A stretch of DNA of 63,266 nt, filler included, from Stramenopiles sp. TOSAG23-6 (taxonomy: Eukaryota), in assembly GCA_900128565.1 (NCBI GenBank). It is 10 parts of 10 records of this genome, joined end to end, with 100 filler letters (N's around TTAATTAATTAA, not from the genome) between each part and the next. Parts side by side here need not be neighbours in the genome. Positions count along the whole stretch, not along the records: positions 6,348 to 12,593 come from LT636737.1; 9 more parts are not named here. One strand, 5' to 3'. The position numbers and the translations under genes are program-made. How positions within the stretch are numbered: position 1 is the stretch's first letter; the number at the start of each line of letters is the position of its first letter. Positions 1,241 through 63,266 of this stretch are shown here, piece after piece. Below the pieces are notes generated by a model. That model did not search any database and was not told the DNA's origin. It saw only the letters and a list, made by a program, of their open reading frames with translations.

Positions 1241-1634
1241 GGCATGTACAACAAACGTTGTGTTATAAAGTACAACCAACAGAAAGAATACACATGTTGT
1301 TTTCATTGTTAACGACTTTATCTCTTTTACCTTGTTTTGTGTGTATAGTATATAGAAATTTTATGTAAATACTCGACGGTCGCCTAATTGGTTGGTCAGC
1401 TGATGATTTCAAACATGTAACAAATCCGCAAAATATCTGAATATTTCGTGCGTTTTCCAAATCGTACGAAAAAATGATACGGAATTGTAGGACGTTTTCA
1501 TTTTTTTCGGACGTTTTCCGTTTTTGAACAGGAAAGTTCCAAAAAGAAATTACGTTTCATTATTTTACAATAATCTTCAAGTTCAAGTTAGAAAATCTTT
1601 TTGTATATATATAGTATAAACTTGTTAAACAATC

Positions 1635-2319
1635 ATGGAACGTAAAGGCAGTGATATGCAATCCCTAGTGATACTAGTAAACCAATTACAAGACGCATTT
1701 ACACAACTAGGATATGATGCTATAAGTCTCCCACAGATTGCAGTCGTTGGGGGACAAAGTGCAGGTAAAAGTTCTGTTCTTGAAAACGTCGTTGGTAAAG
1801 ATTTTCTACCTCGGGGGAGTGGTATCTGTACCCGTAGACCATTGGTATTACAACTGATTCATACACCTGAATTGAAGAATCCTGTTGCGGAGTTTTTACA
1901 CAAAAAAGGTGATAAATTTTATGACTTTGATAAGGTACGTAAAGAGATAGTCAGAGTCACCGATGATGAAACAGGAACAAATAAAGGTTTGTCAGAAATT
2001 CCAATAAATCTCAAAATATTTTCAAGTACCGTGACTAACTTGACACTAATTGATCTTCCAGGTTTAACAAAAGTTGCCACTGGAGATCAGCCTGAAAATA
2101 TTGAACAAATTATACGTTCAATGATGATGAAATATATAAAAGACCCCAATTGTATCATACTCGCGATTCATCCAGCAAATACTGATATGGCAAATAGTGA
2201 TGCTTTAGCCATAGCGAAACAAGTCGATCCGAAAGGAAATCGCACAATTGGTGTTCTTACAAAACTGGACCTGATGGACGAAGGCACTGATGCTATGAAT
2301 ATCTTGACTGGGGAAGCAT
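1635..2319 (+). CDS. Dynamin-related protein, GTPase domain only (truncated at an intron)
   Basis: Contains [37 protein letters not shown] and TKLD. The coding sequence ends at the donor GCAT|GTATGT at 2320, and no downstream dynamin exon is visible. Confidence 0.9.
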
Positions 2320-2536
2320 GTATGTTTTGTTTCATTATGAATTTTTTTGTCTAGTTTGTTTTAGGTTCGAAATTTTGTACCTAATAATTTTTTTTTTTTT
2401 AACTTTCACTTTTTATTCATAAAAGTGAATATAGCTAGTATTATACAACTAATGTTTATATAGTATATATACTACAACATTGAATGATCATGAACAGCTG
2501 ACGACATCACCACAGCAGGTTTGTCGAGGTGGTTAA

Positions 2537-2653: not shown

Positions 2654-3652
2654 TTAAACACTAGAGATTTCATCTGCATTTTCAGTTTTTTTAGGTTCAG
2701 AATTGGAAACGGACGAAATGGTTGAATTAATTGTCAAATTATTTTTTTGCTGATCGGACGTTGGATGATTTTCACTTTCTGATATACTTGATGTATTAAG
2801 AGTATTGTGAGTAGCAAGGTTTGTTGTATTGTTTGTACAATGATTTGCTATTAAAGGAGAATTTTCCTTCCTATCTGCAATTTCATTAGGATTAGGGGTT
2901 TCATTAGGGTTAGGGGTTTTAGGGGTTGTGTCGTTTTCATTAGGGTTACTTTTTATTTGTTGATCTTTAATTTGTTTTGATGTTTTATTTACACTTGGTT
3001 GTATTGCTTTTGATGGTTTCAAAATAACACCATTTGTTGACCGACAACTATCAGGAAGTTTATGTAAATAACCCACACCAATATCACAACCTAAATGACC
3101 TGCACCTCCCCATTGGTCTGAGGGCACAATTGTTTTTATAGAAACTATATCCGTTTTTGAGTTATATACCCACAAATGAAGTGGTTCATACAAAAAATCT
3201 CGTACAAGATAGCTTAGTTCAGATGTATCACAAAGAATATCAGTAGTGGTTCCTAGTATATAGTCTGTATTACTTGAAAAACCGGCTTGTGCCGCAGGAG
3301 AATTTGGGACGACATCCAAAACTCTGAGAGTTGAATCAGACTGACCAAAAGTATCAAAACGAATTGTTATTCCTAAGAATCCTTTGCCACCCCAACCCTC
3401 TGCTGGTAATAGCGTACACATACGAACTGTGCGTGATTTTGTATTATACACAGTCAATTCTAAAGGTGACTTTGAGCAACCTGCAGCCCGGATTAAATTG
3501 AAAAATTCTTCTGTTTCTTCAGTAAACTGCTGACCATCACAAGCAATGATGAAGTCAAAAAAAGATACAAACCCAGCGGAATACCCAGGGGAATTTTCTT
3601 GTATCGATAACACACGATAACCCGTGCGTAAAGCTGACTCTGCTGCGCCCAT
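2654..3652 (-). CDS. GORASP: GRASP55/65 Golgi reassembly stacking protein
   Basis: Myristoylation-type start MGAAES, then GYRVL, SPG..AG...FFDFI, WGGKGFLGITIRF and WGGAGHLGCDIGVGYLHKLP (two GRASP PDZ domains), followed by a low-complexity tail. Confidence 0.92.
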   Translation of the reverse strand: MGAAESALRTGYRVLSIQENSPGYSAGFVSFFDFIIACDGQQFTEETEEFFNLIRAAGCSKSPLELTVYNTKSRTVRMCTLLPAEGWGGKGFLGITIRFDTFGQSDSTLRVLDVVPNSPAAQAGFSSNTDYILGTTTDILCDTSELSYLVRDFLYEPLHLWVYNSKTDIVSIKTIVPSDQWGGAGHLGCDIGVGYLHKLPDSCRSTNGVILKPSKAIQPSVNKTSKQIKDQQIKSNPNENDTTPKTPNPNETPNPNEIADRKENSPLIANHCTNNTTNLATHNTLNTSSISESENHPTSDQQKNNLTINSTISSVSNSEPKKTENADEISSV

Positions 3653-3890
3653 AGTAACAAATGAATGCAAAATAACTTTTTTTTTTTTTTTTTTTAACAA
3701 TAAAGTTTACTCGGGTTGTTGTTGTTGTTGTCGTCGATCGATTTTTTTGTCAAAAAAAAGTCAAAAAATAATATTATTTTTTAGCGCGCTTTTTCATTTG
3801 GAAATCCGATTTGATTTCCGGATATTGTGAATTATATTTTTTAATATCAATTATAATTAAAAATATTATCATTTTGTATTGTTTTTTTAA

Positions 3891-5336
3891 TTATTTTTTT
3901 TTAATATATTTTGAACCATCTTCAAATGATCCAAATAATTTATCTAGTGGAACCATTGGTGTACCATAATTAACTTCAAATTTTGCATGATGTAAATAAT
4001 GAAAATAACTACCTCCTCCTGGTTTGTCATAGCCATCCTATATTTTGGAAAAATATTTCAAAAAAAAATCTAAAAATTTCTTAGGTACGAAATTTCGTAC
4101 GAAAAAAAATTTGAAATTTGAAATTTAAAAAAAAAAAAAAACGTACATGTCCAGGTAATGGCGATATATCTGCATGAAATTTGTTGAAATAAAAGTGCAG
4201 TGGATGCAACGTAAAAAATAATGCAAGTATTGTACATGAATAATAAATAAAATGTTCCACAGGATGCAAATATTGTGAAAAAATATTTTGTTTGTAGTAA
4301 ACCGTTTTGTTTGTTAGGTACGAATTTTTTGTACCAAAAAAAAAAAAAATTATCAAAAAACAAAAATTCTGAAAATGTAATAACCCTAACCCTACATGCT
4401 AAGACCACTCCAAGGCCCAGGATTATGTATTTTGAAAAAATATTTCAAAAAAATCTTAAAAAAAATTGTTAGGTACAAAATTTCGTATGAAAAAAAAATC
4501 AAATTTGAAAAAAAATCTAAAAAATTTGTTAGGTACAAAATTTCGTATGAAAAAAAAATCGAATGTGAAAAAAAATCTACAAAAATTTGTTAGGTACAAA
4601 ATTTCGTATGAAAAAAAATAAAACATACATAACTTTTGTGATGAAGTGAATGAAAATGTCTATAGAGAAATGCTCCAATGTCACCCGTCCAAATAGAATT
4701 TTTTCGATTCCACCAAGGATGCATTACTCTATGAGCAAAATAAAAGTGAAAATCTCTCCAGTATGCAACAGCAGCTAAATGAAAAATACTCCAAATGGGA
4801 AATGACCAAAACCCGGTTTCAATTAACGAAGGTATTGCACCAATTGCCCATAATCGTATAAAGATACATTCATAGCATGTCGACATTAAAAATCCAAGGT
4901 TACAATATATCACTTCTCTCAATAAATGATCACTCTTTTCATATTGTTGAATTGAATTGTACTTTTTTTCTCTAAATCTTTCATCTTGGTGCCAAGGAGA
5001 TAAATATAAGATATAGTGCCAAAACATATATAAAAAATTTAGGACGAAGACATTGCGTATCAGTGGGATTAAGACCCAACTAAAGTCGTTGTCATCTTTT
5101 GCTCTTTCTATAGGAAAAGTATATTGAAAAGATATCAGGGAAATAACCAAATATGGAACAAGTCGAGTGTATCGAACTAATAATTCACCCGCCCAATGAC
5201 CTTTTGCGGGATCCAATCGTTCTTGACTTTTATTGGTTTTATTGGTTTTGTGTATATTCACTGTATTGCCTTTTTTCATGTTTGCCATTTGTAATATATT
5301 TCCAATTGGCCATGGTATAAGATTCAATAACATCAT
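3891..5336 (-). CDS. Sterol desaturase / fatty-acid hydroxylase superfamily protein; 4 exons (5336-4629, 4424-4396, 4267-4147, 4037-3891)
   Basis: His boxes HFYFAHRVMH, HSLHHKSY|NPGPWSGLSM|HPVEH and PGH|DG...HYLHHAKFEVNYG are restored only after removing 3 introns. Confidence 0.9.
4038..4146 (-). other. GT-AG intron of the same sequence family
   Basis: CAT|GTACGT...GTACGAAATTTCGTACCTAAG...AAAATATAG|GAT gives PGHDGY. Confidence 0.9.
4268..4395 (-). other. Non-canonical GT-TT intron
   Basis: AGC AT|GTAGGG...CACAATATTT|G CAT CCT gives SMHPVEH. TACCTAAC lies 45 nt from the end. Confidence 0.75.
4425..4628 (-). other. Non-canonical GT-AT intron with internally triplicated core (about 60-bp units)
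   Basis: TAT|GTATGT...AAAATACAT|AAT joins HHKSY to NPGPWSG. Three TACCTAAC motifs are present. Confidence 0.85.
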
Positions 5337-6449: not shown

Positions 6450-7494
6450 AGGTGGCGTTCTTGATATATTTTATCCACGTTGGAAGTTAAAAGTAACATT
6501 AGAAAACACGAAATATAGAGATGCCGCGGCTGATCTTTATGATGCCACGTATGGTTCCTATTCAAACAGTGATGAAGATGATAGCCCTAACCCTAATGTA
6601 GAAAAAAATGTAGAAAAAAATGTAGAAAAAAATGTAGAAAAAAATGTAGAAAAAAATCTAGAAAAAGTTTCATTTCCAAAATGTGAAGATTTATGGAGTC
6701 ATCCATATGGGCCATTAATATCTCAAGATGAAGAATGTTCCGTTTGGGCTCATGTTGATCGTATTGGATTTCGTGTTCCTGATAAAATTTCATTGCTTTT
6801 TTCAAAAAAATCAAAAAAAACACAAAAATCAAAAAAATCAAAAAAATCACAAAAATCACAAAAAACAAAAAGTAAATTTTTTCCGCTTCAAAGATCTCTC
6901 ACTCCTCATATTGATTGTTGTCCAAATGACCTTTATGGTGGTGGTGGAAAAAAAATCCCACGATTTAGACCTATACAGAGTTTATGTTTGTTTTCATTAT
7001 GAATTTCTTTTTTTTTTTCATACGAAATTTTGTACCTAAGATTTTTTTTTGAGATTTTTTTTTGAGATTTTTTTTTTAGATTTTTTTCCCATCATTTCAA
7101 TTTCATTTTTTTTTCGTACCAAATTTTGTACCTAACAAATACCGAATTTGATATATTGTAAAAAATGTGGTATCACTAACAGATACAAAAATGCCAGATC
7201 AAGGTGGTTTTGAAGCATTTAAAGGATTTCATCAAATATTTTCTGATTATTTTAAAACTGTTAAAAATAGAGCAAAACAACAAAATTTTTCAAGTTCGGA
7301 ATTAAGTACGGAATTTTGTACCAAAAAAAAAAAAAAAAAAATAAGACCAGCTATTTGTGTAGGAGATTTTAGTCCATTTAGACCACAAGAAGATAAACAC
7401 GTTATTGAAGGAATTTCTCATATACCAATTTCTGCTGGATCTGTTGTTTTTTGGGATCAGCGTATTCCGCATGTACGTTTTTTTCATTTCATTT

Positions 7495-7539
<45 letters not shown>

Positions 7540-8020
7540 TCCTAAAAAAAAAATTTTTTTTTTTTTTTTTTTTTTACAATAGATATACATTTTGTATTGT
7601 ATACCAAAGGATTTTTTGTTTTCAATTTCGAATTTGTTTTTCAAAAAAAAAAATATTTGATCTAACAAAAAAATCAAATGTAAAAAAAAATATTTTTCAA
7701 AAATACATGCAAATTCACGATATAATACTACAAATCATGCTAGACAAGTGGTTTATGGTGGATTTCTACCAAAAGTAAAAATTAATGAAAAATATGTGCA
7801 TGAACAATTGATTAATTTACAATTAAGACAACCTCAAACAGATTTTTGGTTGGAAGAAACCCTAACCCTAAAAGTGGAAGAAACCCTAACCCTAAAAGAA
7901 AAAAAAAATTCTGATTATTTTTTGAAGTCTTCTCAAAATAATGTAAAAACAAATGTTCAAGATTTTGAACCGTCTTTGAACGAACATGCCTTGGATTTAT
8001 TAGATTGTTCATTTGTTTGA
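6450..8020 (+). CDS. 2OG-Fe(II) oxygenase (PhyH/Gig2-like), 5' partial; introns at about 6980-7167 (boundaries unresolved) and 7473-7708
   Basis: LTPHIDCCP (HxD), RPIQS..SLTD..GGFE..KGFH and AGSVVFWDQRIPH|ANSRYN...RQVVYGGFLP. Confidence 0.75.
7473..7708 (+). other. GT-AT intron
   Basis: CCG CAT|GTACGT...GATCTAAC (42 nt)...AAAATACAT|GCA AAT, in frame with ORF 7748-8020. Confidence 0.8.
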
Positions 8021-9699: not shown

Positions 9700-10510
9700 A
9701 TGGGTAATGAGTCGAGCAGTGGAAAAAACCAATATGTAAGGCGAACTCAAACACCTGAGGTACAAGGCTTCGTACCTTTCGAATCCTATGTAAGACACAC
9801 AGCAGTCGTCGCGCTTGGTTTCCAAGAACCATTTGTCCTTGCTGATCACACAGTAAATGTTGAAGACACTGAAATTTTCACCTCATTTGTCAAGAACCTT
9901 TCAGATTCTGAAAATATTATGGGTCGCTTATCAGGTGGGCATCGGTACCGTTTATTCACAAACAATGACGATAGTAAATCTACCATGTATGTTGCTGGCG
10001 AGCCTTTGTCAAATACAGCTTGCTTAATTGTATACGTAATTATTGCCGATCAACGAATCTCAATGCAAGAAGCAACTAACATATTTGATAAAATGATTTC
10101 TTTTCAGAGAGATTCAACGGAGCAAATTCGAAAATGGCTTTCCTTTCGAGCAAAAAAGTATGTACGTTTTCATCATGAATTTCAAATTTATTTGTTTTTC
10201 ATACGAAATTTTGTACCTAATAATTTTTTTTTGCGGTTTTATTCAGTGACGTTTTTCATCATGAATTAATTTTTTTTTTGGTATAAAAATTTGTACCTAA
10301 CGAAATTCGATTTTTATTTTAACAATACATAAGCTTCAAGAACAAATATTAATTGGTCAGGAAAGAGTTGGTCAAGGTAATCATACTGAACATGCTAGTT
10401 CTGTTGTGACAAATGATGAAACATCAACCATGCCTCATGATCTTGTCAAGGCAGCTTTACAGAAACTACTGAAGAAAGTGTCTGCTGCCAAGGTGGGTAA
10501 CAAAAAATAA
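9700..10510 (+). CDS. Hypothetical protein, possibly N-myristoylated and longin-like; GT-AT intron 10162-10330
   Basis: Start MGNESS. AAG TAT|GTACGT...AACAATACAT|AAG CTT continues for 59 codons to TAA at 10510. Confidence 0.65.
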
Positions 10511-10917: not shown

Positions 10918-11219
10918 ATTGTCGATTAGACCATTTAGAGTTTTTGATTAATGATAGTATCAAAATATAATAGGTAGTTAGGTAATCGCAAAGTTTTACT
11001 TGTCAGTTACTACCAATTTGATTTTACTGAAGATTTTTTCGTGGAATTAAAAATCAAATCTGATGTTTTTTTCTTTTTTTTTGCGTAATACTAATCATAT
11101 TAATATATATATAGTAGGTCCAAAGTAGATATACTGATACAACACGACAGTGTTATATTGAAATTACGAATATATTTTATAATTATTTCAATTGAAAGGT
11201 CTTGGTAGACGAAACAAGC

Positions 11220-12508
11220 ATGCTATTTTTAAAACGGCAATGTCGTATACTCAAAGGTATTGGTGGTTTTATGTCACCTGTCCGACGACATTTGAACAGT
11301 CACAGAATGCACTGTTTTACACATCATGATTATACTCTTTCTCTCCCATCGCTTCATAGGTTTCCTATGCAAAGGTATCAAGCTATTTATGACGTTCTTT
11401 TGTCTCGTTTAGATGCAGATCCGAGCATTCCTCTTTCAATACATTCATCTCCTCGACTTGCCAGCATTGAGGAGGTACAAGCAGTTCACGATGAAAAGTA
11501 TGTTTCAGATTTTATACATGGTACGTTAGATGCGAAAAGCATTCGAAAAATTGGATTTCCCTGGAGCGAAGACTTTGTCAGACGAACATTTCGCATTACT
11601 GGTGCTACACTCGAGGCCACTGAAAGGATTTTATCCTTTCCAACACGCAAAAGTGGTTGTATTGTGTCAGCCAACTTGGCTGGGTATGTTTTAATTTTTT
11701 TTCAAATTCGTTTTTTTTCATAGTAAATTTTGTACCTAACAAATTTTGAATTTTTTTTTGAAATATTTTTCCAAAATACATGGGAACACATCATGCTTTT
11801 AGTAAACACGGTGAGGGTTTTTGTGTCTTTAATGACATTGCTGTCGCTGCGCATTTTGCTTTACATGAAGGTGTGAAAATTAATGCCAAACATAAAGTAA
11901 AATCACACAACAGTGATATTCAAACAGCTGATAGAGTTCTTGTTATTGACTTAGATGTTCACCAGGGCAATGGTACAGCTGACATTTTGAAGACTATGTT
12001 TGTTTTATTTTTTTTGAATTTTTTTTTGAATTTTTTTTTCGTACGAAATTTTGTACCTAACAAAATTTTTAGATTTTTTTTTAAATATTTTTTCATAATC
12101 CATTCCAGATACATACACATTATCTGTTCATGCTGATAGCAATTATCCATGGAATTCTCGTGTAGCATCAGACTTAGATTTTGCAGTACAAGATGAAATT
12201 ACTGGTGAAGAGTATAATAATGAAGTTCAAAAGGCTCTACAAAAATTAGATAGTCTTGTCAATGAAGACAGAAAAAACATAAAAAACAAAACCCTAACCC
12301 TAAACAAAAGTGAAAACCCTAACCCTAATCCAAAACACGAAATTGAATTAATCATTTATCAAGCTGGTGTTGACCCTCTCAAAGAAGATCGCTTGGGAAA
12401 ATTAAGTCTTTCTCATAAAGACTTACAGAAAAGAAATCAAATCGTGTACGATTGGGTGAAACATAGACGAGAAAAATTACAGATAGATTCTAGACTCCTC
12501 ATTTTAAT
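11220..12508 (+). CDS. Histone deacetylase family protein (AcuC/HDAC11-like), 3' partial; introns 11684-11781, 11998-12103 and from 12509
   Basis: [56 protein letters not shown] and [14 protein letters not shown]. Confidence 0.95.
11684..11781 (+). other. GT-AT intron splitting the catalytic GGTHHA motif
   Basis: GCT GG|GTATGT...TGTACCTAAC...CCAAAATACAT|G GGA ACA CAT CAT. Confidence 0.9.
11998..12103 (+). other. GT-AT intron
   Basis: ACT AT|GTTTGT...TACCTAAC (42 nt)...ATAATCCAT|T CCA GAT ACA TAC ACA TTA TCT GTT CAT. Confidence 0.8.
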
Positions 12509-12693
12509 GTATGTTTTATTTTATTTTTTTACCGAAAAAAAAAAATCGAATTTTTTTTTTCGTACGAAATTTTGTACCTAACAAATTTTCAAANNNNNNN
12601 NNNNNNNNNNNNNNNNNNNNNNNNNNNNNNNNNNNNNTTAATTAATTAANNNNNNNNNNNNNNNNNNNNNNNNNNNNNNNNNNNNNNNNNNNN

Positions 12694-19139: not shown

Positions 19140-22100
19140 ATGATATCATTGGTCAATAATCTTAATAATGTTTCATATTTTTGAGATATTTTTGATGTTG
19201 CACAGGAAAGAAATAACTTTTCAATGGCCATGAGAGATTGGTATACTTTTGCATCTTTTTGAGATTGAGTACTTATATCATCATCATCCATATTTTCAAC
19301 ATCATTTACATTTAACTCAGTATCTACTTCAGTGAGTAAAATATCTTTAATACCAAAGATGGATGTCTGTACATATTTGGTACAAGATAATAATGCGTCA
19401 GGTCTAGCATCGATCAATATACCAATTAATTGGGCAGCAGCAAGTCTCAATTTATCTTGTTGAGATGAAATCCATTTCATTACAAATTCAATCATTTCTT
19501 CTGCTTTTTGAAGAGAACACTTTCTCAGTAATAAATTCAAGGTATTTGATATCATACGCCGACAATCTGAGTTATGTATTTTGGAAAAATATTTCAAACA
19601 AAATCTAAAAAATATTGTTAGGTACAAATTTTTTTTGAAAAAAATAAATTCGATTTTTTTTTTTTTTCGGTAAAAAAAAAAAAAAATAAATAAAACATAC
19701 ATTATCATTGACAAGTCGTAAAACAAGAGGAAGAAACAATAACCCTGATTGATCATCAATTAGTTCTTTTGGAAACTTTTGAATAATTTTACCTAGAAAT
19801 TTTAATAATGATAGTCGACCTGTATCGTAGGGAAATGATAAATTTTTCATTACATGATCAATATGATTTTGTAATCGTTTCTTGCCTAATGGAAATAAAA
19901 TTAAGTATAACATCAAAACTTCAGAACATGAAGAACGGATTATATCATGCTGTGACGTCACCATACAATCCTGTAACTGTTCCATCAGAGTATACATCTC
20001 AACCGTCACAGTTTTTCTCTTGACTAGAGTTTTAATTAACTCAAAAGATGCTTTTTGTTTTTTTGGTATTTGAATACCCGACGATAGTAAATCAATCAAA
20101 CACGATATTTGATTTGGGGTCAAAGTATAGTCTGAATGATGGCGTAGTAGAACACTAAGTGTGTGAAAACAACCTTGTGCCAAGTCAGCTTCTGCTGCTG
20201 CACCAAAATGGCCCAATACAGATAATAATCTGTTTACAATTCGAGGCATGAAAGACGGTAATGAAGGTAATTTCCACGAACTTAGTAATGACAGACATTT
20301 CATACTGAGCAACATTAATTGATCATTTTTTGTTCGATCACAACAACGTGTTAATAATCCAAGAATTGGATCCAATAGAGATAAATGTGATACATCATTT
20401 CGCTGTAATTTACCTTTTTTAAGAAAGGAATATAAAGCTAATAAGGCATACTCTACAACAACATACTCATTTGCAGTAGCATAAGAGTGGTCGATGCCAC
20501 GTGTCGTTAAACATTTACCACCAGTCAACCTTGGCTCGGGCAATACTTCATAATTATCAGCTTTATGACCATTACTTAATTTCATCTTTGAAGTTGTATC
20601 ATCTGTATTGACTAACCATTTTTCGACTTCTACATTACCTTTTCCAGATTCAATTTTCATTCGACGTTTTGTTGTTGCTTTTGTATACCCAGATACAATT
20701 TTTTGTAAATAAATCATTAGATGAGGAATTTCTACACTATTATTTTGTACTAATCCTAAAGTAGCTCTTCGAAAAAGTTCTCTTATTTTGTTAATCGTTT
20801 TTTTGTCAACAGTTTCATTTAATTTTTCGCGAAGTGGTGTAAGAACAACATGAACGGCATCTGAAGGAAGAAATTGCATTGAAGTGAATAAAATTTCAAA
20901 TGTGTCAAAACTTTTACACGTTTTGACTTCACGCATTTGACGATGAGCATTTGAAACACCTGAATCAATTTCCTTTTGAATCGATGCCTGGCCAAAAATA
21001 TCTTCTAACACAGTAGCTAATACAGTAGGAATTATTCGCCATATTACCGAGTGATCCATTGGAACTTCTTTCGCGTCAAGAGCCTCATAAAACTCTTCAG
21101 GATGGAGTTTACTTTCAGAATCATCATCACCACGTTCCTGACGCCATTTCAGTCTTTGATCTTTCCGAAATTGTTGTTGTTCATTCATTTCAATAATACT
21201 TTTCTTCATTAATTCAGTCTCAGGTTGAAGTAAAGATTTATCATAGAGATTACGAAGTACTGCATGTAGCGTATATCCCATAATGTGTACCATATAACCC
21301 TTATTCAAAGCATCATGTAATTGTTCAACAATCATTGGAAGCTTTTGCAAACCAATCAAACACGAAATTTCCACCAACACATTTCGTGCTTCATCTCTTG
21401 CGTGTTGTGCTTTAACACGTAACACACGGCATACAGATCTTGTTAATTGAGATATCGATGGATCACATATTGCACTTGGTAATTGCATAAGTAAACGAGT
21501 GAGTGCTAATGCAATCGGTGTTCGTACAGTTACTTGCGTCAAATCACTATTATGTCCCTCACCTCGACTTACTACACGGCGTATTAATTGCTTTTGTAAT
21601 GGGGGGAGTAGACGAACTTGGATTGCACGTAATATAGATTGAATGGATACACATTTTGATGTTCCAATAGTAGCATCTGTTTCTGTTTCAATCGTAGCAT
21701 CGAAATCACTTTTGATATTTTTAGGTACAAAAACATGAAAGCCGTCAAGCATCGCACATATTGCACGAATCAAAACCTTTTCAGAATTTGGTTTTCTTGG
21801 AACTTCTTCAATTAATTTAGTAATTTCTGAAATATATTTAGACCAACTCAAACGCTGAGATAAAGGTGTTAACACTCGAATTGCTTCCTCTCTAAGATCT
21901 GCTTTTATTGAAGTTTCACTTTCGCGAACTTTGGCTAATACTAAAGGTAACAAAATGTGTACCACAGTGAATGGTTTCAAGTCAAGTGAACCTAATGAGC
22001 CTTTATCCCCTGCTTGAACACGTAATCTCTGTAAAGCCTTCACCTGTCTATGAGCTTGAACATGAGTCATATTCAAGAAAAAATCCTGTTCAGGATCTAT

Positions 22101-25389: not shown

Positions 25390-26405
25390 ACGTATTGGTG
25401 GGACACTTGATGATGCTGCAGGTGAAGCATTTGATAAAGTATCACGAATTTTAGGATTACCTCAACGAATTGAAAGATTAATGAATAAAGATAAAACATT
25501 TTTACAAAACAATACAGAAAAGAAAACACGAAATATAAAAATGCATGGTGGTGCTTTAGTTGAACTTGCATCAAAGAAAGCAAAAAAGTTGAAGAAGAAA
25601 ATGTATGAATCAAATAGTGAATCATACTCATTTCCAATTCCTATGCGTGGATCAAATCGATGGAAATTGGACTTTTCATTCTCTGGGCTTAAAACAGCAG
25701 TTTTGTATGCAATGCGTAATGAAATCTCTCGAGCTCAATCAAAATTAGAAAACGATGAAATTTCCATCATTAAAAATAATAGTACTAATAATGTTAAGGC
25801 TAAAGCTCAATCTGAAATTGAATCATTACTTCAAGTAAATGACAACGATGCATTTGAAATTGCTGAGGCATTTCAAAAATCAGCTGTAAAACATATCATA
25901 GAGAAAACTGAGGGGGCTTTAGACCATGCAGAGAAATTGTTGATAGATGGAATGAATAACCCTAACCCTACCCCTATGTACGTTTTTTTTTCAAATTCGA
26001 AATTATTTTTTCGTACGAAATTTTGTACCTAACAAATTTAAGTGTTTTTTTGATAACCCTAAGAATAATAACATACAAAAAAAAACTGAGAATATAGAAA
26101 AGTGTATATATAATAATAGTAAAAAGTTAAACAAACTTGTTGTGTGTGGTGGTGTGGCGTCAAATTCTTATTTACGAGACCAAATTGTGAAAATGACAAA
26201 ACAAAAAAATATCAATGTAATTTATCCTCCGCCTAAATTATGTACAGATAATGGTGTTATGATTGCATGGGCTGCCTGTGAGCAGTATAATACATTTCGT
26301 CATAGAAAACACCTAAATGGTGAAAATCCGAACGAGTTTGTGTCTCAAAAAGATAACCCTAACTCTGCTGACCTTACTATACGTGCAAGATGGCCTTTGG
26401 GATGA
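25390..26405 (+). CDS. OSGEPL1: t6A synthase TsaD/Qri7 (OSGEPL1), 5' partial; GT-AT intron 25978-26074
   Basis: [31 protein letters not shown] and [12 protein letters not shown]. The upstream intron ends AAAATACAT at 25389. Confidence 0.92.
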
Positions 26406-30644: not shown

Positions 30645-31539
30645 ATGTCAGAGTTCATTATCGACAAACATTACTATGCTCTTTGTGCTTTAGTAACGGC
30701 TCTGATTCAGTATTCATGTTTCTTCATCGCGTATAACTGTAGCTTTGATACAATAACTGATTTCGCGGGTAGTATAAACTTTGTAGTGATTGCTCTTCTG
30801 ACGCTTTTCCTCGGTGACTATTATTATGACAGACAAGTTGTCCTAACAGGTATGTTATTGGCTGCACGTTTAGAACTTGCTATATTTTTGTTATATAGAG
30901 TTGTAAAAAGAAAGAAAGATGCACGTTTTGACAGAATACGTGAAAATCTCATCCCCTTCTTAGTCTTTTGGACTTTTCAAATCATTTGGATATATGTAGT
31001 AGCACTACCAGTAACAAGAATAAACTCAGCTCAACCTAATCCTGCTATTTGTGGATGGGATTATTTAGGTTGGACAATGTGGGGTATCGGCTTTTTCGTA
31101 CAGACTCATAGTGACTTTCAGAAGCTTTCTTTTCGGTCGAATCCTGCCAACAAAAACTTTGCCTGTGACACTGGATTTTGGAAATATTCACGGCATCCAA
31201 ACTACTTTGGAGAAATCCTCATGTGGACAGGAATATTCTTATCGACTCTACCAGTTTGGCGTATTGATGGTGAGAAGGATGGTTGGATTACCATGTATGT
31301 TTTCAAAATTGAATGTAAAATATATTTTTTTCTGTACCAAAATTTGTACCTAACAAAAAATTTAAAAAAAACAAAAAAATTTTCACAATACAGGCTATCA
31401 CCAATTTTTACCATTATACTTTTACTCTTTGTTTCAGGTGTCCCAACGGCTGAAGGGAAAAACTTGAAAAGATTTTATGAAAATGGGAATTCTATTCGCG
31501 AAAGGTATATGAGTTATAGATCACGCACACCTACGATAT
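30645..31539 (+). CDS. DUF1295 / steroid 5-alpha-reductase-like membrane protein, 3' partial; GT-AG family intron 31295-31393, next donor at 31540
   Basis: TDFAGS.NF, KDARFD, DFQK and WKYSRHPNYFGE. Junction ACC AT|GTATGT...CAATACAG|G CTA. Confidence 0.9.
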
Positions 31540-34485: not shown

Positions 34486-36528
34486 ATGTCAACTCGAGAC
34501 CCCCACATGATGCGCGAAGCATTGCAATTTCTATCGAATATTCCAATGGGCGGCGAGCATTTGCCTTCTGGTCGCCGTAACCCACGCTCACCTCCTGGTT
34601 CTAGTTTGTCAAAAAGAATGGCCTTTTCTAGTTCAACAGAAGTACCAAATGAAGGCTATGGTCGAAATAATAATCGTAATGGCATATTAATGGTTCAAGG
34701 TGATAAGACATATGTTCATGTTGGACTTCACGACATCCTACAACGTGGGCCAGATATCGAAGGGACAGCAAGGCGACAATGGGAAGATGCTCTTGTTCGC
34801 CAAGGCTTCATGAATGGTCGAGTATTTCTTTCAGCAAGTCGTGGTTACCCTACATGTGTATTTTCGATGAAACCATATGCTACTAATTCAGCAAAAGTAC
34901 TTGAAAAGAAGAAAAAGAGGAAAAAAATACCTTCTCGAAAAACTCAAGATTTCGATTCTGGTATTGATAGTGTTGATGAAGAAATTGTTGTTGAAGGAAT
35001 ATCATATAAACATTTGCTACACTCTACATGGGGAAAATATTGTAGCTCTGAGCGTGATCAAAAAGAAGANCATCCAGCACCCCCACCACAATATATCCCT
35101 GGTTATCTAGATGATCCTGAAATTAGACATACGAAGCATCGGACTGTAATGTTCATGCCACCTGCGTGTACGTTTTTTTCCNACACTTTTTTTTTTTAAT
35201 ATTTTTTTTAATACGAAATTTTGTACCTAACAAATTTTAGTTTTTTTTTTTAAATATTTTTTCAAAATACATGTTATATACACACTGTGATACCTTATTC
35301 CAGACCTAAAAAATTACAAGAGGAACTTAATGCCCAGTTTCATCAAAAACATCCCCATTTAGACCCCCAATTAACTCTCACCAGTGTACGTCGAGCAAAG
35401 GAGATTTGTTGTAAGATGTATGTTTTTATCGTTTATTTTTTGTACGAAATATTTTTAATATTTTTTTTTTTTTACTATTTTTTTTTTAAATATTTTTTTT
35501 ACATGTTTTCATCGTTTTTTTATACGAAATATTTTTAATGATTTTTTTTTTTAAAGTATTTTTTTTACATGTTTTCATCATTTCCTGTACAATTTCAATG
35601 TCGAATTTACTTTTTTTCATTGAAAATTTTAATTTTGGACATTTTTTGTTAAATTTCAAAGTTTTGAAATATTTTTTCACAATATTTGTTACATTTTTGT
35701 CTTTCTAACAATAAAAACACAGACGATGATGGAGATGGGGTAGATAGAGACGACAAACCTGTTTTAGAGGTATCAACTGTAGCTCTTGCATTCGTATGTT
35801 GTCTATTTCAATTTAATTTTTTTTTTCCGTCAAAAATATTTCATACCTATCAAGTTTTTTTGAAAATATTTTTTCACAATATATGTATGTTTTTTTTCAT
35901 TTTTTTTTCAATTTCGAATTTAATTTTTTTTTTTTGATTTTTTCGTACGAAATTTCGTACCTAACAAATTATACAAAAAAAAAATATTTTTTCACAATAT
36001 ATGTATACTGGGAAAAATTAATTCTTCGCTCAGTCTGTACATTTTCAAGTATGGAAAATTCGTTTTTCGTGTCAAAAGATAATCATGTGTGTTTTCAAGA
36101 TTGAGTTTCATTTTTTTCATACAAAAGTTTGTACCTTACAAAACAGTGTACAAAAAAAAAATATATTTTTCCAAAATACATGTTTTTTTTATTAATTTTT
36201 TTTTTTTGAAAATTTCAGACCTAACAAAACCATTTCAAAAAAAAAATATTTTCCCAAAATACATTGTTTAATTCTTGCAGTTTGTCTTTTACTAGCACAC
36301 AAGTTCAATCAACCCCAACCGGTGGCAAGTTCAGAAATTCAGAAATTATTAGTATTAGTTGTAGAGAAACTAGGTAGGATAAGCCCATCTGCGTTTAATA
36401 AGAAAAATATTTTTCAAAATGAGACTTTAGTCTTTGCAGCTCTTGATTTTAGTCTTCATATACAAAAAAATGAATTTTTACCTCACATTTCACTCATTAG
36501 CGAATGTATGAATATGATTGATAAATAG
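34486..36528 (+). CDS. CABLES-like cyclin-domain protein; introns 35168-35272, 35418-35687, 35794-36002 and 36087-36264
   Basis: ALQFLSNI, YLDDPE..TKHRTV, YIHTVIPY..PKKL.EELN.QF..KHP..LTLT, STVALAF|VYWEKL, CLLLAHKF and ETLVFAALDFSL. Confidence 0.85.
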
Positions 36529-37323: not shown

Positions 37324-37405
37324 ATAGTTGTGGCCGAGTGGTTAAGGCGAGACATTAGAAATGTCTTGGGCTATGCCCGCGCAGGTTCGAATCCTGTCAA
37401 CTGCG
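37324..37405 (+). tRNA. tRNA-Ser(AGA)
   Basis: A box TGGCCGAGTGG, anticodon arm AGACA-TTAGAAA-TGTCT, long variable arm, GGTTCGAATCC, discriminator G and a downstream oligo-T tract. Length 82 nt. Confidence 0.93.
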
Positions 37406-38126: not shown

Positions 38127-38773
38127 ATGTGTTGTACTTACTTCTGAGTCCTTGGATAGTGAAACTCCGCCTCGAGTAAACTTACGTCCCGTTGATGTAT
38201 TGTGAAAAATATTTTTTTTTCGTAAAAAAAACTCGTTAGGTACGAAGTTTGGTACAAAAAAAATAAATTCGAAATTGATAATGAAAACGTACACCTTCCG
38301 AGCATGATTGGTTTCCCATCAAGGCGAGGTTTTAATTTCCAAGTCCTGTCCGTATATGGACCCTCAATGCATTTCAAATGTACATCAAATATACCCCTTG
38401 TAATGTTTGCTCTAATACTTGCGTTATTTTTAGAATCACGCGAGTCAGCTAATACACCCAAAGCAATATCTCGTTGGCGCCCAAATTCGTTCCGGAAAAA
38501 CTCAATTTGGGCCTCTGTTCGAGCGGTAAGACTTCCAATCAAAGATTCTGTATACGCAGCAAGGTATTCCTCAACTGTTGCATTCTTTGGACATTCACGA
38601 GTTGCCCTTGCCATAGCATCACGCATAACCACATTAGACGAAGCTCCTGATGAAGAAGTAGAAACACAACACCCAGCCGTTAAGGATGGCACTGTTGTGC
38701 TATTAATTATATTGCGCGTATTATTATTTTCAGATCCCCTTCTCCTTCTACTTTTCACTACTGTATCTTGCAT
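38127..38773 (-). CDS. FHA-domain protein, 3' partial; GT-AT intron 38195-38292, next donor at 38126
   Basis: LKCIEGPY...IMLGR|STGRKF..GVSLSKDSEVSTTH, which carries the FHA GR and SxxH motifs. Confidence 0.85.
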
Positions 38774-39199: not shown

Positions 39200-41775
39200 A
39201 TGGAAGCTGCAGATCAATCCTTCAAGACGAAACCCAACAAAGAAAAGAGCGCAATAAAAGCGGAGTGTTCTTTGACTTCGGGACCATCGGAATTCACTAT
39301 GCCACCAACATCGAATAGGCATCTTCCGACTGCAGCGGTAAAAATTTTGAAAGGTACGTAACTTCATTAAATATTCGTTTTCGCCGGGTCAGCTTTGTGT
39401 TTTCGTGTGCTTTTGTTTCTTAATTTCGTTTTTCATTCTGCTTGATATAGATTAGTCGTTCTCATTTTCATTATCTTTCATCATGTATATATTTAAAATC
39501 ACAGATTGGATGATGTCCGAAGAGCATTTTATGCACCCGTATCCTTCAGATGCTGAAAAGCAGGAGTTGGTTGCGAAAACAGGAATCCGCCTGAAACAGC
39601 TCAACAATTGGTTCACCAACGCTCGGAAACGTATCTGGCGCCCAGTTTTTGATTCACGTTTAGCTGCGCAGTCAAAATCACCACATTCTAATAATCCGTG
39701 TATAATATCTCCAATGAACAAAATGCCTGCTGGTGCCTCGAATAATTCTCCTTTTGGTTGGTCTATGCCAAGACGTCGTAGTGAAGTGGATGCTTTGTAT
39801 GGGCTTACAGTTTTAGGCAGCGGCGAGACAGGAAATTCATCAGCATATTCTACAGCATCTGGTTCTACGACACCTTTAAAACAAAACGAAGCGCCCAATG
39901 TAATTCCCGGTATATATATGCAGAACATGCGCCAATGCTTTAAAAATGGTCCCGTAGGAAATATTTTTTTTTTAGTATTTTTTTTTTTCATACGAAATTT
40001 TGTACCTAACAATTTTTTTAAGTTTTTTTTTGAAATATTTTTCCAAAATACATTCCGTGAACTCTGCTACTATTGCTGAGTATGATGCGAAAGGTACAAA
40101 AACAATCGATGGTAAAACGAAACCATTGACCTGTGATACGAATTCCGTACCTAATTATCAAAATACACCCAAGAAAGAAAATATCGGGAGTATTTCGAGC
40201 TGTACTAATTTGGTCAAAAATGACAATTCTCAGTTACCTGTGACGCCAATAAATAATACAACTGTTGCAATGAATAAAGTCGCCATTCCGTTCACACCAA
40301 CTGTACCCTACAGTAGTCCACTCACTAAGGAGAGGATTGAAAGTTTTTTTCAAAGTAACATTCAGCATTCTCCTAATGTAAATAATATGGAACATAATGT
40401 GTCTAAAGATGGCGATGCAGCTGCAAAGACTTTTCCGACACCGGCTAATGTTTCTACACAAACTAAAGTCTTGTCTCATCTTAACCAAAATCAGGTTACA
40501 TCTAAATTTGATAATACATTGAATTCATCTAGAGATGTTGAATCATCTAGTAATCATTTGAGTAAGACAGTACTTACGTGTAAGACGAGTGAAGAATCTC
40601 CAATGGGACATACTGGAAATATTCCTCGAAGTGTTACTCCACAAACTGCTAACTCTCTTAATGGAAATGTTACCTTTTGTGTTACTCCTCCGATTACGAT
40701 GACATCATCTTCAAATACAAATATCTCTGAGGTTTCTTCAACAACATCAGTATCTAAGAAAACTTCACCTCAGCTTCCTCCAGGCAAGAAACGATGCCTC
40801 TCGCTATCTGATGGAAGTAACATATATGTATCTTATGCGGGTGAAAAAAGATCTAAAAAATGTGATAGTAGTAATCCATCAAGTGATAACTGGGATCCTT
40901 TTGCAACTTTGATGGCTTCGGCTGTTGTCCAACCTATAACCTCAACAGATTCCCAAGAGTTAAAAAACAATGATGAAAATGTGAAAGAAAATACATCATC
41001 TAAGAATTCAACTTTAGTATCTACAAAGAAGAGATTATCGATAGATGTTGAAGCCGCAAAAAGTCGAATTAAACGAAATCGCGTCTCCAGTAGTGAAATT
41101 GGCGCTGATATGCTTGTACGTATGTCGTCATTATCTGAATCGCCCAATCTTGCTGCTTCAAAAACTGCCACCCATTCAAATGCAAGTGTTCCAATTTTGA
41201 TAAATCCTTCATTAAATGATAATCTGGGTACAAAAGATGTCACACAACTTGCTGCTGGGTATTCAAAGCTAAATGAAAGCCAATTATCAGAATTATCAAA
41301 ATCAATATTAGAGGGGCAATTACCAACAAATACGCCCTTTGTAAATATGCCAGTGTTTGATAAAAATGGAAATCCAGTTTTCCATTTTTCAGAATTCCCA
41401 CCAATGCCTTCTCAATTTAAGACACCAAAACCGAAGAAAGTGTATGTTTTATATGAATTTCTATTTTTTTTTCATACGAAATTTCGTACCTAACGAATTT
41501 TTTTTGAAATATTTTTCAAAATACAACTTTCACCACTACCTTTTCGTGCACATTTACAAGCTTTTCTAAATTTAGCTAAACAAAAATCTATTTCTGATGG
41601 GCTCTCATCGGCGTTATTAATTATGCGTGATGAGGATAATAAGAGCAAAGATAAAATTCGGGGAATAGCAAAAANTCGCAANTCAAAAAAAANAAAAANA
41701 ANGCGCATAANAANAAAAATGATTCAACACAAATTTTATCAAAATCAGAAGAGCGAAAAAAATTTCATTTATTAG
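39200..41775 (+). CDS. TALE-class homeodomain transcription factor; introns 39354-39504 (canonical), 39954-40053 (GT-AT) and about 41440-41526
   Basis: RHLPTAAVKILK|DWMMSEEHFMHPYPSDAEKQEL...QLNNWFTNARKRIW, followed by a long S/T/N-rich tail. Confidence 0.9.
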
Positions 41776-44370: not shown

Positions 44371-47300
44371 TTTTGGAAAAATATTTCAAAAAAAATCTAA
44401 AAAAATTGTTAGGTACAAAATTTACAATAAAACAAATTCGATTTTTTTTTTACCGGAAAAAAAAAAAAATAAAACATACATGATATCATTGGTCAATAAT
44501 CTTAATAATGTTTCATATTTTTGAGATATTTTTGATGTTGCACAGGAAAGAAATAACTTTTCAATGGCCATGAGAGATTGGTATACTTTTGCATCTTTTT
44601 GAGATTGAGTACTTATATCATCATCATCCATATTTTCAACATCATTTACATTTAACTCAGTATCTACTTCAGTGAGTAAAATATCTTTAATACCAAAGAT
44701 GGATGTCTGTACATATTTGGTACAAGATAATAATGCGTCAGGTCTAGCATCGATCAATATACCAATTAATTGGGCAGCAGCAAGTCTCAATTTATCTTGT
44801 TGAGATGAAATCCATTTCATTACAAATTCAATCATTTCTTCTGCTTTTTGAAGAGAACACTTTCTCAGTAATAAATTCAAGGTATTTGATATCATACGCC
44901 GACAATCTGAGTTATGTATTTTGGAAAAATATTTCAAACAAAATCTAAAAAATATTGTTAGGTACAAATTTTTTTTGAAAAAAATAAATTCGATTTTTTT
45001 TTTTTTTCGGTAAAAAAAAAAAAAAATAAATAAAACATACATTATCATTGACAAGTCGTAAAACAAGAGGAAGAAACAATAACCCTGATTGATCATCAAT
45101 TAGTTCTTTTGGAAACTTTTGAATAATTTTACCTAGAAATTTTAATAATGATAGTCGACCTGTATCGTAGGGAAATGATAAATTTTTCATTACATGATCA
45201 ATATGATTTTGTAATCGTTTCTTGCCTAATGGAAATAAAATTAAGTATAACATCAAAACTTCAGAACATGAAGAACGGATTATATCATGCTGTGACGTCA
45301 CCATACAATCCTGTAACTGTTCCATCAGAGTATACATCTCAACCGTCACAGTTTTTCTCTTGACTAGAGTTTTAATTAACTCAAAAGATGCTTTTTGTTT
45401 TTTTGGTATTTGAATACCCGACGATAGTAAATCAATCAAACACGATATTTGATTTGGGGTCAAAGTATAGTCTGAATGATGGCGTAGTAGAACACTAAGT
45501 GTGTGAAAACAACCTTGTGCCAAGTCAGCTTCTGCTGCTGCACCAAAATGGCCCAATACAGATAATAATCTGTTTACAATTCGAGGCATGAAAGACGGTA
45601 ATGAAGGTAATTTCCACGAACTTAGTAATGACAGACATTTCATACTGAGCAACATTAATTGATCATTTTTTGTTCGATCACAACAACGTGTTAATAATCC
45701 AAGAATTGGATCCAATAGAGATAAATGTGATACATCATTTCGCTGTAATTTACCTTTTTTAAGAAAGGAATATAAAGCTAATAAGGCATACTCTACAACA
45801 ACATACTCATTTGCAGTAGCATAAGAGTGGTCGATGCCACGTGTCGTTAAACATTTACCACCAGTCAACCTTGGCTCGGGCAATACTTCATAATTATCAG
45901 CTTTATGACCATTACTTAATTTCATCTTTGAAGTTGTATCATCTGTATTGACTAACCATTTTTCGACTTCTACATTACCTTTTCCAGATTCAATTTTCAT
46001 TCGACGTTTTGTTGTTGCTTTTGTATACCCAGATACAATTTTTTGTAAATAAATCATTAGATGAGGAATTTCTACACTATTATTTTGTACTAATCCTAAA
46101 GTAGCTCTTCGAAAAAGTTCTCTTATTTTGTTAATCGTTTTTTTGTCAACAGTTTCATTTAATTTTTCGCGAAGTGGTGTAAGAACAACATGAACGGCAT
46201 CTGAAGGAAGAAATTGCATTGAAGTGAATAAAATTTCAAATGTGTCAAAACTTTTACACGTTTTGACTTCACGCATTTGACGATGAGCATTTGAAACACC
46301 TGAATCAATTTCCTTTTGAATCGATGCCTGGCCAAAAATATCTTCTAACACAGTAGCTAATACAGTAGGAATTATTCGCCATATTACCGAGTGATCCATT
46401 GGAACTTCTTTCGCGTCAAGAGCCTCATAAAACTCTTCAGGATGGAGTTTACTTTCAGAATCATCATCACCACGTTCCTGACGCCATTTCAGTCTTTGAT
46501 CTTTCCGAAATTGTTGTTGTTCATTCATTTCAATAATACTTTTCTTCATTAATTCAGTCTCAGGTTGAAGTAAAGATTTATCATAGAGATTACGAAGTAC
46601 TGCATGTAGCGTATATCCCATAATGTGTACCATATAACCCTTATTCAAAGCATCATGTAATTGTTCAACAATCATTGGAAGCTTTTGCAAACCAATCAAA
46701 CACGAAATTTCCACCAACACATTTCGTGCTTCATCTCTTGCGTGTTGTGCTTTAACACGTAACACACGGCATACAGATCTTGTTAATTGAGATATCGATG
46801 GATCACATATTGCACTTGGTAATTGCATAAGTAAACGAGTGAGTGCTAATGCAATCGGTGTTCGTACAGTTACTTGCGTCAAATCACTATTATGTCCCTC
46901 ACCTCGACTTACTACACGGCGTATTAATTGCTTTTGTAATGGGGGGAGTAGACGAACTTGGATTGCACGTAATATAGATTGAATGGATACACATTTTGAT
47001 GTTCCAATAGTAGCATCTGTTTCTGTTTCAATCGTAGCATCGAAATCACTTTTGATATTTTTAGGTACAAAAACATGAAAGCCGTCAAGCATCGCACATA
47101 TTGCACGAATCAAAACCTTTTCAGAATTTGGTTTTCTTGGAACTTCTTCAATTAATTTAGTAATTTCTGAAATATATTTAGACCAACTCAAACGCTGAGA
47201 TAAAGGTGTTAACACTCGAATTGCTTCCTCTCTAAGATCTGCTTTTATTGAAGTTTCACTTTCGCGAACTTTGGCTAATACTAAAGGTAACAAAATGTGT

Positions 47301-62300: not shown

Positions 62301-63266
62301 CTCATCATCATCATCAGAAGTCTTAGCAAATGTTTTGTTCATCATTTGGTTTGACATAAACGTTTTAATTATTTCTTTTTCTGAAATTTCATTTTGTGTA
62401 GAAATTGATAACAATTCCCAAGCATCAGGATCATTTTGAAATGATATATTACTATATTCACAAGCAATGCATCGAAAAAATAACGAAATTAAAAATTTGT
62501 TTTTAGATTCTGCTAAAGTTGGCATGCCTTGTAGTAGTTGTAATAGTAAAGACAATTTTTTACTAGGACCCGTAGGATCAGTATCAACAAACACGAAACC
62601 AGCGACTGACGATGAACGTAAAGCACGATTAAATGAAGAAAATAATGAAATCACATTTTTCGTGTTTTTCGTATTGAATATTTCATCTTTTGATCTCTGA
62701 CCAGTTAGTTTTGCACGTAAATTTCGACGTTTTCGATTCTCATGTTCAACAAGTTGTTTCGTTTTAACTGTGTGATCCTGATTTATTTGATTCATATTAC
62801 ATAAAATGTCAAGATTTTCAAGATTTTCAAGATTTTCTCTTTCTTTTTGTACATCCATTGAAGACTGACCATACCCACCACCCAATTCCTGCTCAAATAT
62901 AGCACGTGTCAATTGACGAGCAGCAAGCGGCCACAATAGGCTAGTTACTTTTGGTGTATTCGATACACTTGAAAATATACTTTTTATAGTTGGCCAAATT
63001 CGATTGTATCTGACATTAAATAGACCAATAAAATGTTGTAATGCAAAACGAACGTATATACGAGGCAAGCGACTGTTCTGCAAATACACTTTAATATGTT
63101 CCATTCTTGCTCTTACGTCACGATCGCTTTCAAAATCTCTTGATTTTCTTTCGATGAATAATAATTGTTCAAATAAAAGACATTCTGTCCCAGGAATATT
63201 TCGTGTTGTACTATTTTCAGAATTATTTTCAGAATTATTTTCAGAATTATTTTCAGAATTATTTTC
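44371..63266 (-). repeat. UTP20: Three further copies of the UTP20 contig (44371-50602, 50703-56934, 57035-63266)
   Basis: Same ORF translations and essentially the same contig ends as 19031-25267, which is 5 nt longer at one end. Each copy is separated by an artificial linker. Confidence 0.95.

Follow-up and report, generated by a model that had tools for sequence, protein, structure and literature searches.

Probable GT..AT removal of a transposon-like intron family in an HDAC-family gene and other genes of an uncultured marine stramenopile

Nearly all eukaryotic introns end in AG, and the gene examined here raises the question of where one of its introns ends and which last base the splicing machinery would have to accept there. 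The gene, an HDAC-family member (Pfam PF00850) at positions 11307-12593 (+), is interrupted by three copies of a repeated intron of ~100 nt and lies in a stretch of 63,266 bases from the Stramenopiles sp. TOSAG23-6 assembly (GCA_900128565.1), hereafter the window, in which ten contigs of 6,232-6,247 bp each are joined by 100-nt linkers (44 N, a 12-nt six-frame-stop string and a further 44 N). We consider it likely that the first copy, at 11684-11781 (intron 1), belongs to a transposon-like intron family, or 'introner', and is removed from GT to AT, most likely as a U2-type intron; the predicted GT-AT removal is supported by sequence anatomy together with protein homology.

Exon 1 terminates in ...GCTGG at 11683, intron 1 runs from GTATGTTTT to ...AAAATACAT, and exon 2 opens with GGGAACACATCAT at 11782. 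The intron contains the 14-nt box TTGTACCTAACAAA at 11730-11743, and the sequence between the putative branch site within it and 11801-11802 holds no AG. The initial annotation had pointed out that many family introns follow an exonic AT, and 15 of the 20 5' ends in the window do so; at such copies GT..AT and AT..AC removal are therefore indistinguishable. The HDAC copy follows GG and therefore reveals which cut is used, and, because it lacks a 5' AT, the AT at its 3' end belongs to the removed piece regardless of the exon. A search with exon 1 against 1.84 billion representatives returned 807 relatives, and a profile for scoring the alternative splice readings was built from 31 homologues: every protein among the top 150 of the 807 that is 280-460 residues long, except the public model of this gene (P0001). 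Every one of the 31 carries the motif [A/T/S]-G-G-[T/Y]-H-H, methionine stands at the first G in 0/31, and the commonest eight-residue form (11/31) is identical to the product of GT..AT removal. Removal from GT to AT at both introns gives the top profile score, 358.7 bits, as against 351.7 bits for the two-base-shifted reading, which produces A-M-G-T (7.0 bits lower), 350.1 bits for TA..TA excision (8.6 lower), 320.5 bits for GT..AG ending at 11802, which stays in frame minus seven residues (38 lower), and 270.1 bits for P0001. In an alignment with eight close homologues there is no gap across this junction. These results bear out what the initial annotation had argued from the locus itself: that exon 1 ends in GG and GT..AT restores the conserved motif, that the shifted reading puts methionine where homologues have glycine, and that the first AG after the box deletes the catalytic His-His. 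To agree with homology at the protein level, the predicted removal must be 98 nt long and begin either at the 11683/11684 boundary or one base to its right.

The second junction of the gene (11997/12104) can be read in the same way. GT..AT removal of intron 2 leaves exactly three residues, equivalent to residues 183-185 of 9rje_A, between matches that reach residue 182 and resume at 186, and the resulting loop length equals that of seven of the eight aligned homologues, P0014 being gapped there; as far as the sequence can tell, intron 2 independently supports GT..AT. Matches to the PF00850 (Hist_deacetyl) profile cover positions 1-106 in exon 1, 110-162 in exon 2 and 167-270 in exon 3, and the exons also match the bacterial-type or AcuC-like deacetylase structures 9gkv, 9rje and 9gz5. 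The first residue of exon 2 falls on profile position 110, and its G-T-H-H-A-F aligns with 9rje_A residues 131-136; a 20-residue lineage insertion follows within the exon, and P0002 has an insertion at the same site. With GT..AT removal the catalytic His-His, the D-x-H zinc ligands and the second Asp ligand are all present, and the frame is intact across three exons with every catalytic block that the contig contains; the C-terminal G-G-G-Y block is expected past the contig end, and homologues read M-G-G-G-Y after exon 3. The sole public model of the gene, the 312-residue P0001, is mis-spliced: it takes an internal GTAAAT (11722) as donor and the AG at 11802 as acceptor, translates 38 nt of intron 1 as protein and is without the catalytic His-His, cuts a 57-nt coding stretch (11871-11927, within the exon 2 insertion) as a GT-AG intron, reads through intron 2 and then omits the start of exon 3.

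The same element resides in unrelated genes, among them those for HDAC, UTP20, TsaD and DUF1295 proteins. At up to two mismatches the box TTGTACCTAACAAA has 38 matches in the window against 1.45 expected, nine of them in the duplicated contigs 8-10, and among 27 box positions checked in the distinct contigs 1-7 (26 box matches with 31575 added) there are 0 antisense copies within a long open reading frame (ORF). Alignment of 13 delimited copies shows three blocks: GT[A/G/T][C/T]GTTTT on the 5' side, ...CRTACGAAATTTYGTACCTAACAAA in the centre, and AAATATTTTTYCAMAATAYA on the 3' side, after which comes the last base. The 5' GT, the G at position 5 of the 5' motif and the A before the last base are found in 13/13 copies, and the last base, in the same column throughout, is T in nine, G in three and A in one. 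When copies visible only at their 3' end are included, AT closes 16 of 20, AG three and another dinucleotide one. In 16/20 copies the intron closes with CAT or TAT, Y-A-Y lies upstream of 12/20 5' ends, and the five 5' ends without an exonic AT follow GG, GT, GT, GT and CG. The CCTAAC core is conserved and sits 30-46 nt ahead of the 3' end, T makes up 18-57% of the tail, and AGs lying 4-14 nt past the box are skipped in 7/16 copies. The ends of the copies form inverted repeats of ~9-10 nt, ATGTAT(G)TTTT against AAAATACAT.

A frame test on 12 AT-ending copies asked whether the GT..AT length joins the longest upstream and downstream ORFs in frame. Nine passed, being in frame only at that length, with 5' ends at 7473, 10162, 11684, 11998, 25978, 35168, 36087, 19700 and 38292; by chance one copy in three would pass, and the probability of at least nine of 12 is ~0.004 (binomial sum). 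The next downstream AG is in frame for only two of the eight passing copies for which it was computed. Two copies, at 4038-4146 and 31295-31393, had earlier been cited as fixing the donor, and the 5' cut at GT is indeed fixed there, as a shift alters a residue; both end in AG, so it is only the 5' GT that they fix. Coordinates are collected in Table 1. The Pfam coordinates of the two TsaD exons overlap (206-223), and the junction of that intron is not fixed by Pfam.

Table 1. Parts of the HDAC-family gene and family introns delimited elsewhere in the window
Feature	Position	Strand	Remarks
Exon 1	11307..11683	+	from ATG of public model P0001 (putative start); open frame 11196-11723; residues 3-126 of P0001 100% identical
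Family intron 1, 98 nt, GT..AT	11684..11781	+	exonic GG before it; joins 162 + 117 open codons in frame
TACCTAAC box, putative branch site	11733..11740	+	penultimate A 42 nt ahead of 3' cut
First AG after box	11801..11802	+	acceptor in P0001; its use loses G-T-H-H-A-F-S
Exon 2	11782..11997	+	catalytic His-His and D-x-H zinc-ligand block
Family intron 2, 106 nt, GT..AT	11998..12103	+	exonic AT before it, ends ...CCAT; 78/158 codons in frame only at 106 nt
Exon 3	12104..12508	+	telomere-like (CCCTAA)n at 12292 and again at 12317, both in frame
Family intron 3, 5' part (GTATGTTTT...)	12509..12593	+	ended by contig edge
Family intron, GT..AG	4038..4146	-	ends ATATAG; downstream exon has a weak FA_hydroxylase match
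Family intron, three internal units	4425..4628	-	31/117 codons at GT..AT, 239/118 if 2 nt shorter
Family intron, 236 nt, GT..AT	7473..7708	+	107/103 codons
Family intron, two internal units, GT..AT	10162..10330	+	AG 3 nt downstream likewise in frame
Family intron in UTP20 gene, GT..AT	19574..19700	-	exonic AT before it; 1855/163 codons; Pfam UTP20_N, UTP20
Family intron in TsaD/Kae1-type gene, GT..AT	25978..26074	+	202/109 codons
Family intron in DUF1295 gene, GT..AG	31295..31393	+	ends ATACAG; profile 2-187, then 196-225
Family intron, GT..AT	35168..35272	+	exonic GT before it; 32/87 codons
Two tandem family units removed as one, GT..AT	36087..36264	+	90/87 codons
Family intron, 98 nt, GT..AT	38195..38292	-	exonic GT before it; 163/31 codons joined only at 98 nt; shifted reading alters mRNA

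Some family introns (4425-4628 on the minus strand, 10162-10330 and 36087-36264 on the plus strand) contain two or three central units, and there is one head-to-tail pair of whole units in which ...ACAT is directly followed by GTTTTTTTT.

In the mechanism that we propose, each copy would carry with it a 5' splice site (GTATGTTTT), a box resembling a branch site (TACCTAAC) some 40 nt before the end, a T-rich tail and, as its last bases, ...A-Y-A-T; it would be co-transcribed with its host gene and excised at the pre-mRNA stage, the major (U2-type) spliceosome being the most likely agent, with cuts ahead of the G in GT and behind the T of the terminal AT. The 3' splice site would then be A-T, and the minority of copies with G at the same position would be ordinary GT-AG introns. 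Judged by sequence, the 5' GT block, the CCTAAC core and the T-rich tail would together make up the layout of a major-spliceosome intron, and the 5' block and the box would resemble strong budding-yeast signals, the box having one extra C; U2-type branch sites lie some 18-40 nt ahead of the 3' end and a pyrimidine-rich tract comes after them. The departure from U2-type introns is at the 3' end, which is not the first AG after the branch site. Structural work has the last intron G in contact with the first intron G and the A before the last base in contact with the branch A; a fixed A followed by T or G would fit a relaxed reading of the last-base contact only. Hairpin-guided, non-spliceosomal excision was also considered, and it is spoken against by the folding of intron 1 with its flanks, which is no better than that of shuffled sequences (z = +0.78) and in which the ends do not pair. 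The family could have spread as a DNA transposon with AT target duplication or by insertion with a preference for sites after AT, and either would account for the exonic AT before most copies: AT stands on both sides in 15/20 copies, duplication of 2 bp and target preference are indistinguishable for an invariant AT, and the HDAC copy has no 5' AT. Schemes with a 3-bp or a flanking 2-bp target-site duplication failed on inspection by eye.

RNA evidence was drawn from contigs of four seawater RNA-library runs, which contain 5-8% of the sampled words. RNA contig X1 record 1 (346 nt) covers exon 1 at 11238-11583 with 0 differences, and X2 record 14 covers 11876-11997 in exon 2, so that most of the 57-nt stretch cut by P0001 is present in RNA; the telomere-like stretches of exon 3 are traversed by X3 record 24 (12192-12342) and X2 record 16 (12287-12484). 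Family sequence reaches a very high summed depth in the RNA contigs, much of it from other loci, and in contigs from other loci the resemblance to family copies begins with the exonic AT (10160) and ceases at 11781-11783. The family is transcribed, or at least not absent from the RNA libraries. The match of X2 record 14 breaks off at precisely 11997, where exon 2 is predicted to end, and the contig has 29 more letters; this match was not counted, as reads are cut near repeats; listed joints such as 11778 to 12552 connect different family copies and were set aside as repeat artefacts. Among metagenome contigs an exact 24-nt exon 1 probe found 0 matches and a protein-guided scan gave 263 pattern matches with 0 confirmed, and the protein cluster of P0001 is a singleton.

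Several points weigh against GT..AT removal as we propose it. The claim that the catalytic motif requires GT..AT was sound in excluding AT..AC and AG and went too far in overlooking a slide of one nucleotide: G is both the first base of intron 1 and the first base of exon 2, so that removal from TA to TG (11685-11782) yields the identical mRNA, and junction 1 alone, as sequence, is not decisive for GT..AT. What favours GT..AT over TA..TG is the family alignment alone, GT being invariant there and the flanking bases differing among copies. The homology argument moreover presupposes a functional HDAC gene, and at junction 2 the residue created is I, compared with D in 8/8 aligned homologues. In the frame test the copy at 4628-4425 fails, the flanks at 35885 and 41835 are too short to judge, with 35885 leaning against, and the copy at 41442-41525 (+) is in frame only if it ends one base short of the family position. 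This last copy has the end ...ATACA followed by A, with many single N nearby, and may contain an assembly error; downstream of the failing copy, at 4290-4400 (-), there is a possible 29-nt micro-exon and then a different intervening piece, which runs from the telomere-like GTAGGGTTAGGG to ...CACAATAT and whose frames would require AT..AT ends. As regards RNA, the abundance of unspliced family sequence in the contigs would fit poor splicing or DNA carry-over too, and among the matches listed for the four seawater runs there is no contig that joins 11683 to 11782; we therefore infer the removal of intron 1 at the RNA level. The protein collection holds no transcript-derived fragment of the HDAC gene and none near-identical to exon 2 or to the end of exon 1.

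The agent of removal and the ends themselves can be explained in other ways. The same GT..AT removal might be carried out by the minor (U12-type) spliceosome, which tolerates varied terminal dinucleotides, and a report on Physarum describes GT-AT as a recurrent non-canonical U12-type pair (10.1101/2020.10.12.336362). To the points against U2-type removal must be added that the family 5' site is only one or two positions from the Physarum U12-like motif [G/A]TATC[C/T]TTT. The difference lies mainly at position 5, which is G, not C as in the U12-type motif, in all 13 aligned copies, and the box is 30-46 nt from the 3' end compared with 9-12 nt for the Physarum branch motifs, in that text's account. 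U12-type branch motifs lie near the 3' end in other organisms too, and on these grounds we regard the minor spliceosome as an unlikely agent. If instead the family were truly AT..AC, an established intron class, the HDAC copy would have to be an insertion that is mis-spliced or cannot be spliced, in a gene that is decaying; at the 15 of 20 copies after an exonic AT, with their ...ACAT ends, AT..AC removal would give the same mRNA. Yet the HDAC gene keeps an open frame through three exons along with its catalytic blocks, the shift at junction 1 would actually be GG..AC, and intron 2, ending ...CCAT, would need AT..CC; the shift is likewise at odds with the TAT-ending copies (35885, 41835), with the AG-ending copies where it alters a residue and with the five copies that have no exonic AT, and this account is very unlikely to be right.

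A conventional spliceosome using the first AG at 11802, with a product that lacks the catalytic His-His or a gene that has recently become a pseudogene, has a similarly small probability. GT(11684)..AG(11802) is in frame and P0001 takes this acceptor, whereas against the family profile the reading forfeits the 38 bits given above, the 21 nt that it would discard still code the exact consensus, the GT of intron 2 has no in-frame AG solution (use of the next AG, at 12108, gives 17 stops), and family-wide the next AG is in frame in 2/8 copies compared with 9/12 for AT. We think it highly improbable that the elements are removed from DNA by programmed elimination, like the internal eliminated sequences of ciliates, with the assembly representing the unprocessed genome. 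The inverted repeats at the ends (ATGTAT.. / ..ATACAT) do have a TA inside each, and TA..TA excision of the HDAC copy is in frame; its product, however, besides its lower score, has two extra residues absent from 31/31 homologues, family sequence is abundant in RNA-library contigs, and placement on the sense strand only, together with conserved blocks that look like splice signals, fits RNA processing. That the T at 11781 is merely a sequencing or amplification error for G in an ordinary GT-AG intron has next to no likelihood: the scattered N, the low-quality look of the assembly and the three family copies ending AG would be compatible with an error, whereas 16/20 independent copies end AT. 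Removal from GT to AT, most likely by the major spliceosome, remains the reading that we prefer.

The window bears on how common the family is. Its contigs stand from longest to shortest; contigs 8, 9 and 10 (44371-63266) have one and the same sequence, in which every 31-mer of contig 4 is also found, and the distinct contigs number seven, about 44 kb. Eight of the 14 distinct contig ends fall inside or beside a family intron copy; the presence of the repeat at contig ends would account for the fragmentation of the assembly into ~6-kb pieces, and this placement implies that the copy number of the family is very high. From the copies tallied, we roughly estimate a density of ~1 copy per 2 kb of distinct sequence. 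The GC content of the window is ~33% (range 25-38%), intergenic spacers are very short, and long ORFs in the standard code give ordinary eukaryotic proteins, with Pfam identities that include dynamin, GRASP55/65, UTP20, a DEAD-box helicase, a MetAP-type peptidase, D-Tyr-tRNA deacylase, CCDC124 and an MFS transporter; an Rfam scan of the 63 kb has a tRNA gene at 37324-37405 (+) as its sole match. N are scattered across the contigs and the assembly looks to be of low quality. The exon contigs recovered from seawater RNA, together with the label that one source gives P0001 ('GSMAST32.ASY1.ANO1.222.1 assembled CDS'), suggest an uncultured marine stramenopile as host; the cluster nearest to the GRASP protein is dominated by oomycetes, which hints only weakly at the lineage. 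After an N-terminal dynamin exon at 1629-2354 (+) comes what looks like the start of a family intron, at 2320, and a convergent GRASP gene at 2654-3706 (-) leaves too little space for the remainder of the dynamin gene; possible explanations are a chimeric contig, truncation of the gene or an intron of great length. The telomere-like CCCTAACCCTAA occurs exactly eight times in the window against 0 expected (2904, 5438, 6585, 7860, 7884, 8096, 12292 and 12317), and 4384 and 25960 have near-copies; at least at 6585, 7860 and 7884 and in the HDAC gene it is in frame within ORFs and is translated T-L-T-L or N-P-N-P.

Natural use at scale of a last intron base other than G is rare, the cases being Fritillaria, Amoebophrya, euglenozoans and some minor-class introns. 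If our reading is true, a uniform GT..AT family beside AG sisters that differ at the same aligned position would be a natural experiment on last-base recognition in the second splicing step. It is possible, if on balance somewhat doubtful, that the genome of this uncultured marine stramenopile carries thousands of A-T-ending introners, that its major spliceosome is relaxed or re-set at the last base, accepting G or T after a fixed A, and that annotation restricted to GT-AG has spoiled a large share of the lineage's published gene models, the low gene counts and apparent gene decay reported for assemblies of this kind being partly artefacts of unrecognised introns. Should the density hold genome-wide, many gene models, gene counts and 'pseudogene' calls of the organism would need revision. 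For single-cell assemblies of uncultured stramenopiles, a report describes SNAP/GAZE gene prediction, low numbers of genes and, for the dynein genes of one MAST-3 lineage, 'advanced pseudogenization' (PMC5778133), and the available text of that report contains 'splice' 0 times and 'canonical' 0 times. We speculate that unrecognised introns could contribute to such pseudogene calls, if the organism of the window belongs there. Introner surveys built on annotated GY-AG introns would overlook families of this kind.

Introners and introns with a 3' AT are themselves already known, and what we describe is best filed as new in its combination, a canonical GT at the 5' end of an introner family paired with a non-canonical AT at its 3' end. 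The literature searches made here yielded no printed report of a GT-AT introner family, and a GT/AT class might appear in supplementary intron-class tables (Fritillaria Fig. S1, Gozashti SI Table 6). The introners of Micromonas, Aureococcus and many aquatic protists, mostly marine, are short, high-copy and non-autonomous elements with terminal inverted repeats that insert in genes and are spliced out, and a target duplication may supply a splice site (PMC9860276, PMC12130899, PMC11282704). The present family is introner-like in its many near-identical copies serving as introns of unrelated genes; a 2-bp AT target duplication would be possible for it but is indistinguishable from a target preference. 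It differs in its GT..AT ends from the described families, which end GY-AG with rare GC or GA 5' sites; screens that start from annotated introns and accept a 3' AG or AC would therefore miss a 3'-AT family (PMC9860276, PMC12130899). In Amoebophrya, a marine protist, >60% of introns are non-GT-AG, and a subset is repeated, with inverted and direct repeats at the borders (PMC7789003). Those introns have no preferred terminal dinucleotide and inverted repeats of 8-20 nt that form an exon-approximating hairpin, whereas the ends here are uniform and those of intron 1 do not pair; the GC content of Amoebophrya is also very different from that of the window. Euglenid and hemistasiid diplonemid introns share non-GT-AG borders, a probable transposon origin and junction repeats, but they have variable borders and need extensive pairing of the intron ends for excision, neither of which is seen here (PMC11282704, PMC12621601). 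In Physarum polycephalum GT-AT accounts for 17% of 1,014 non-canonical U12-type introns (10.1101/2020.10.12.336362), which differ from the copies described here in showing the U12-type motif at the 5' end, in placing the branch motif 9-12 nt from the 3' end and in forming no repeat family. The closest parallels in the bases themselves come from Fritillaria borealis and F. pellucida, in which AT is the commonest 3' end (34% and 44% of introns), Y-A-Y forms the last three intron bases and often also precedes the 5' site, removal is U2-type with divergent U2AF paralogues, a miniature-transposon origin is suspected and AG/AC and AG/AT are the main classes (PMC13326754). Our family shares with them the final Y-A-Y, the upstream Y-A-Y and the occurrence of canonical and non-canonical ends side by side, and it stands apart from the AG 5' classes of that animal host in having a strong GT 5' site in all copies and a stramenopile host.

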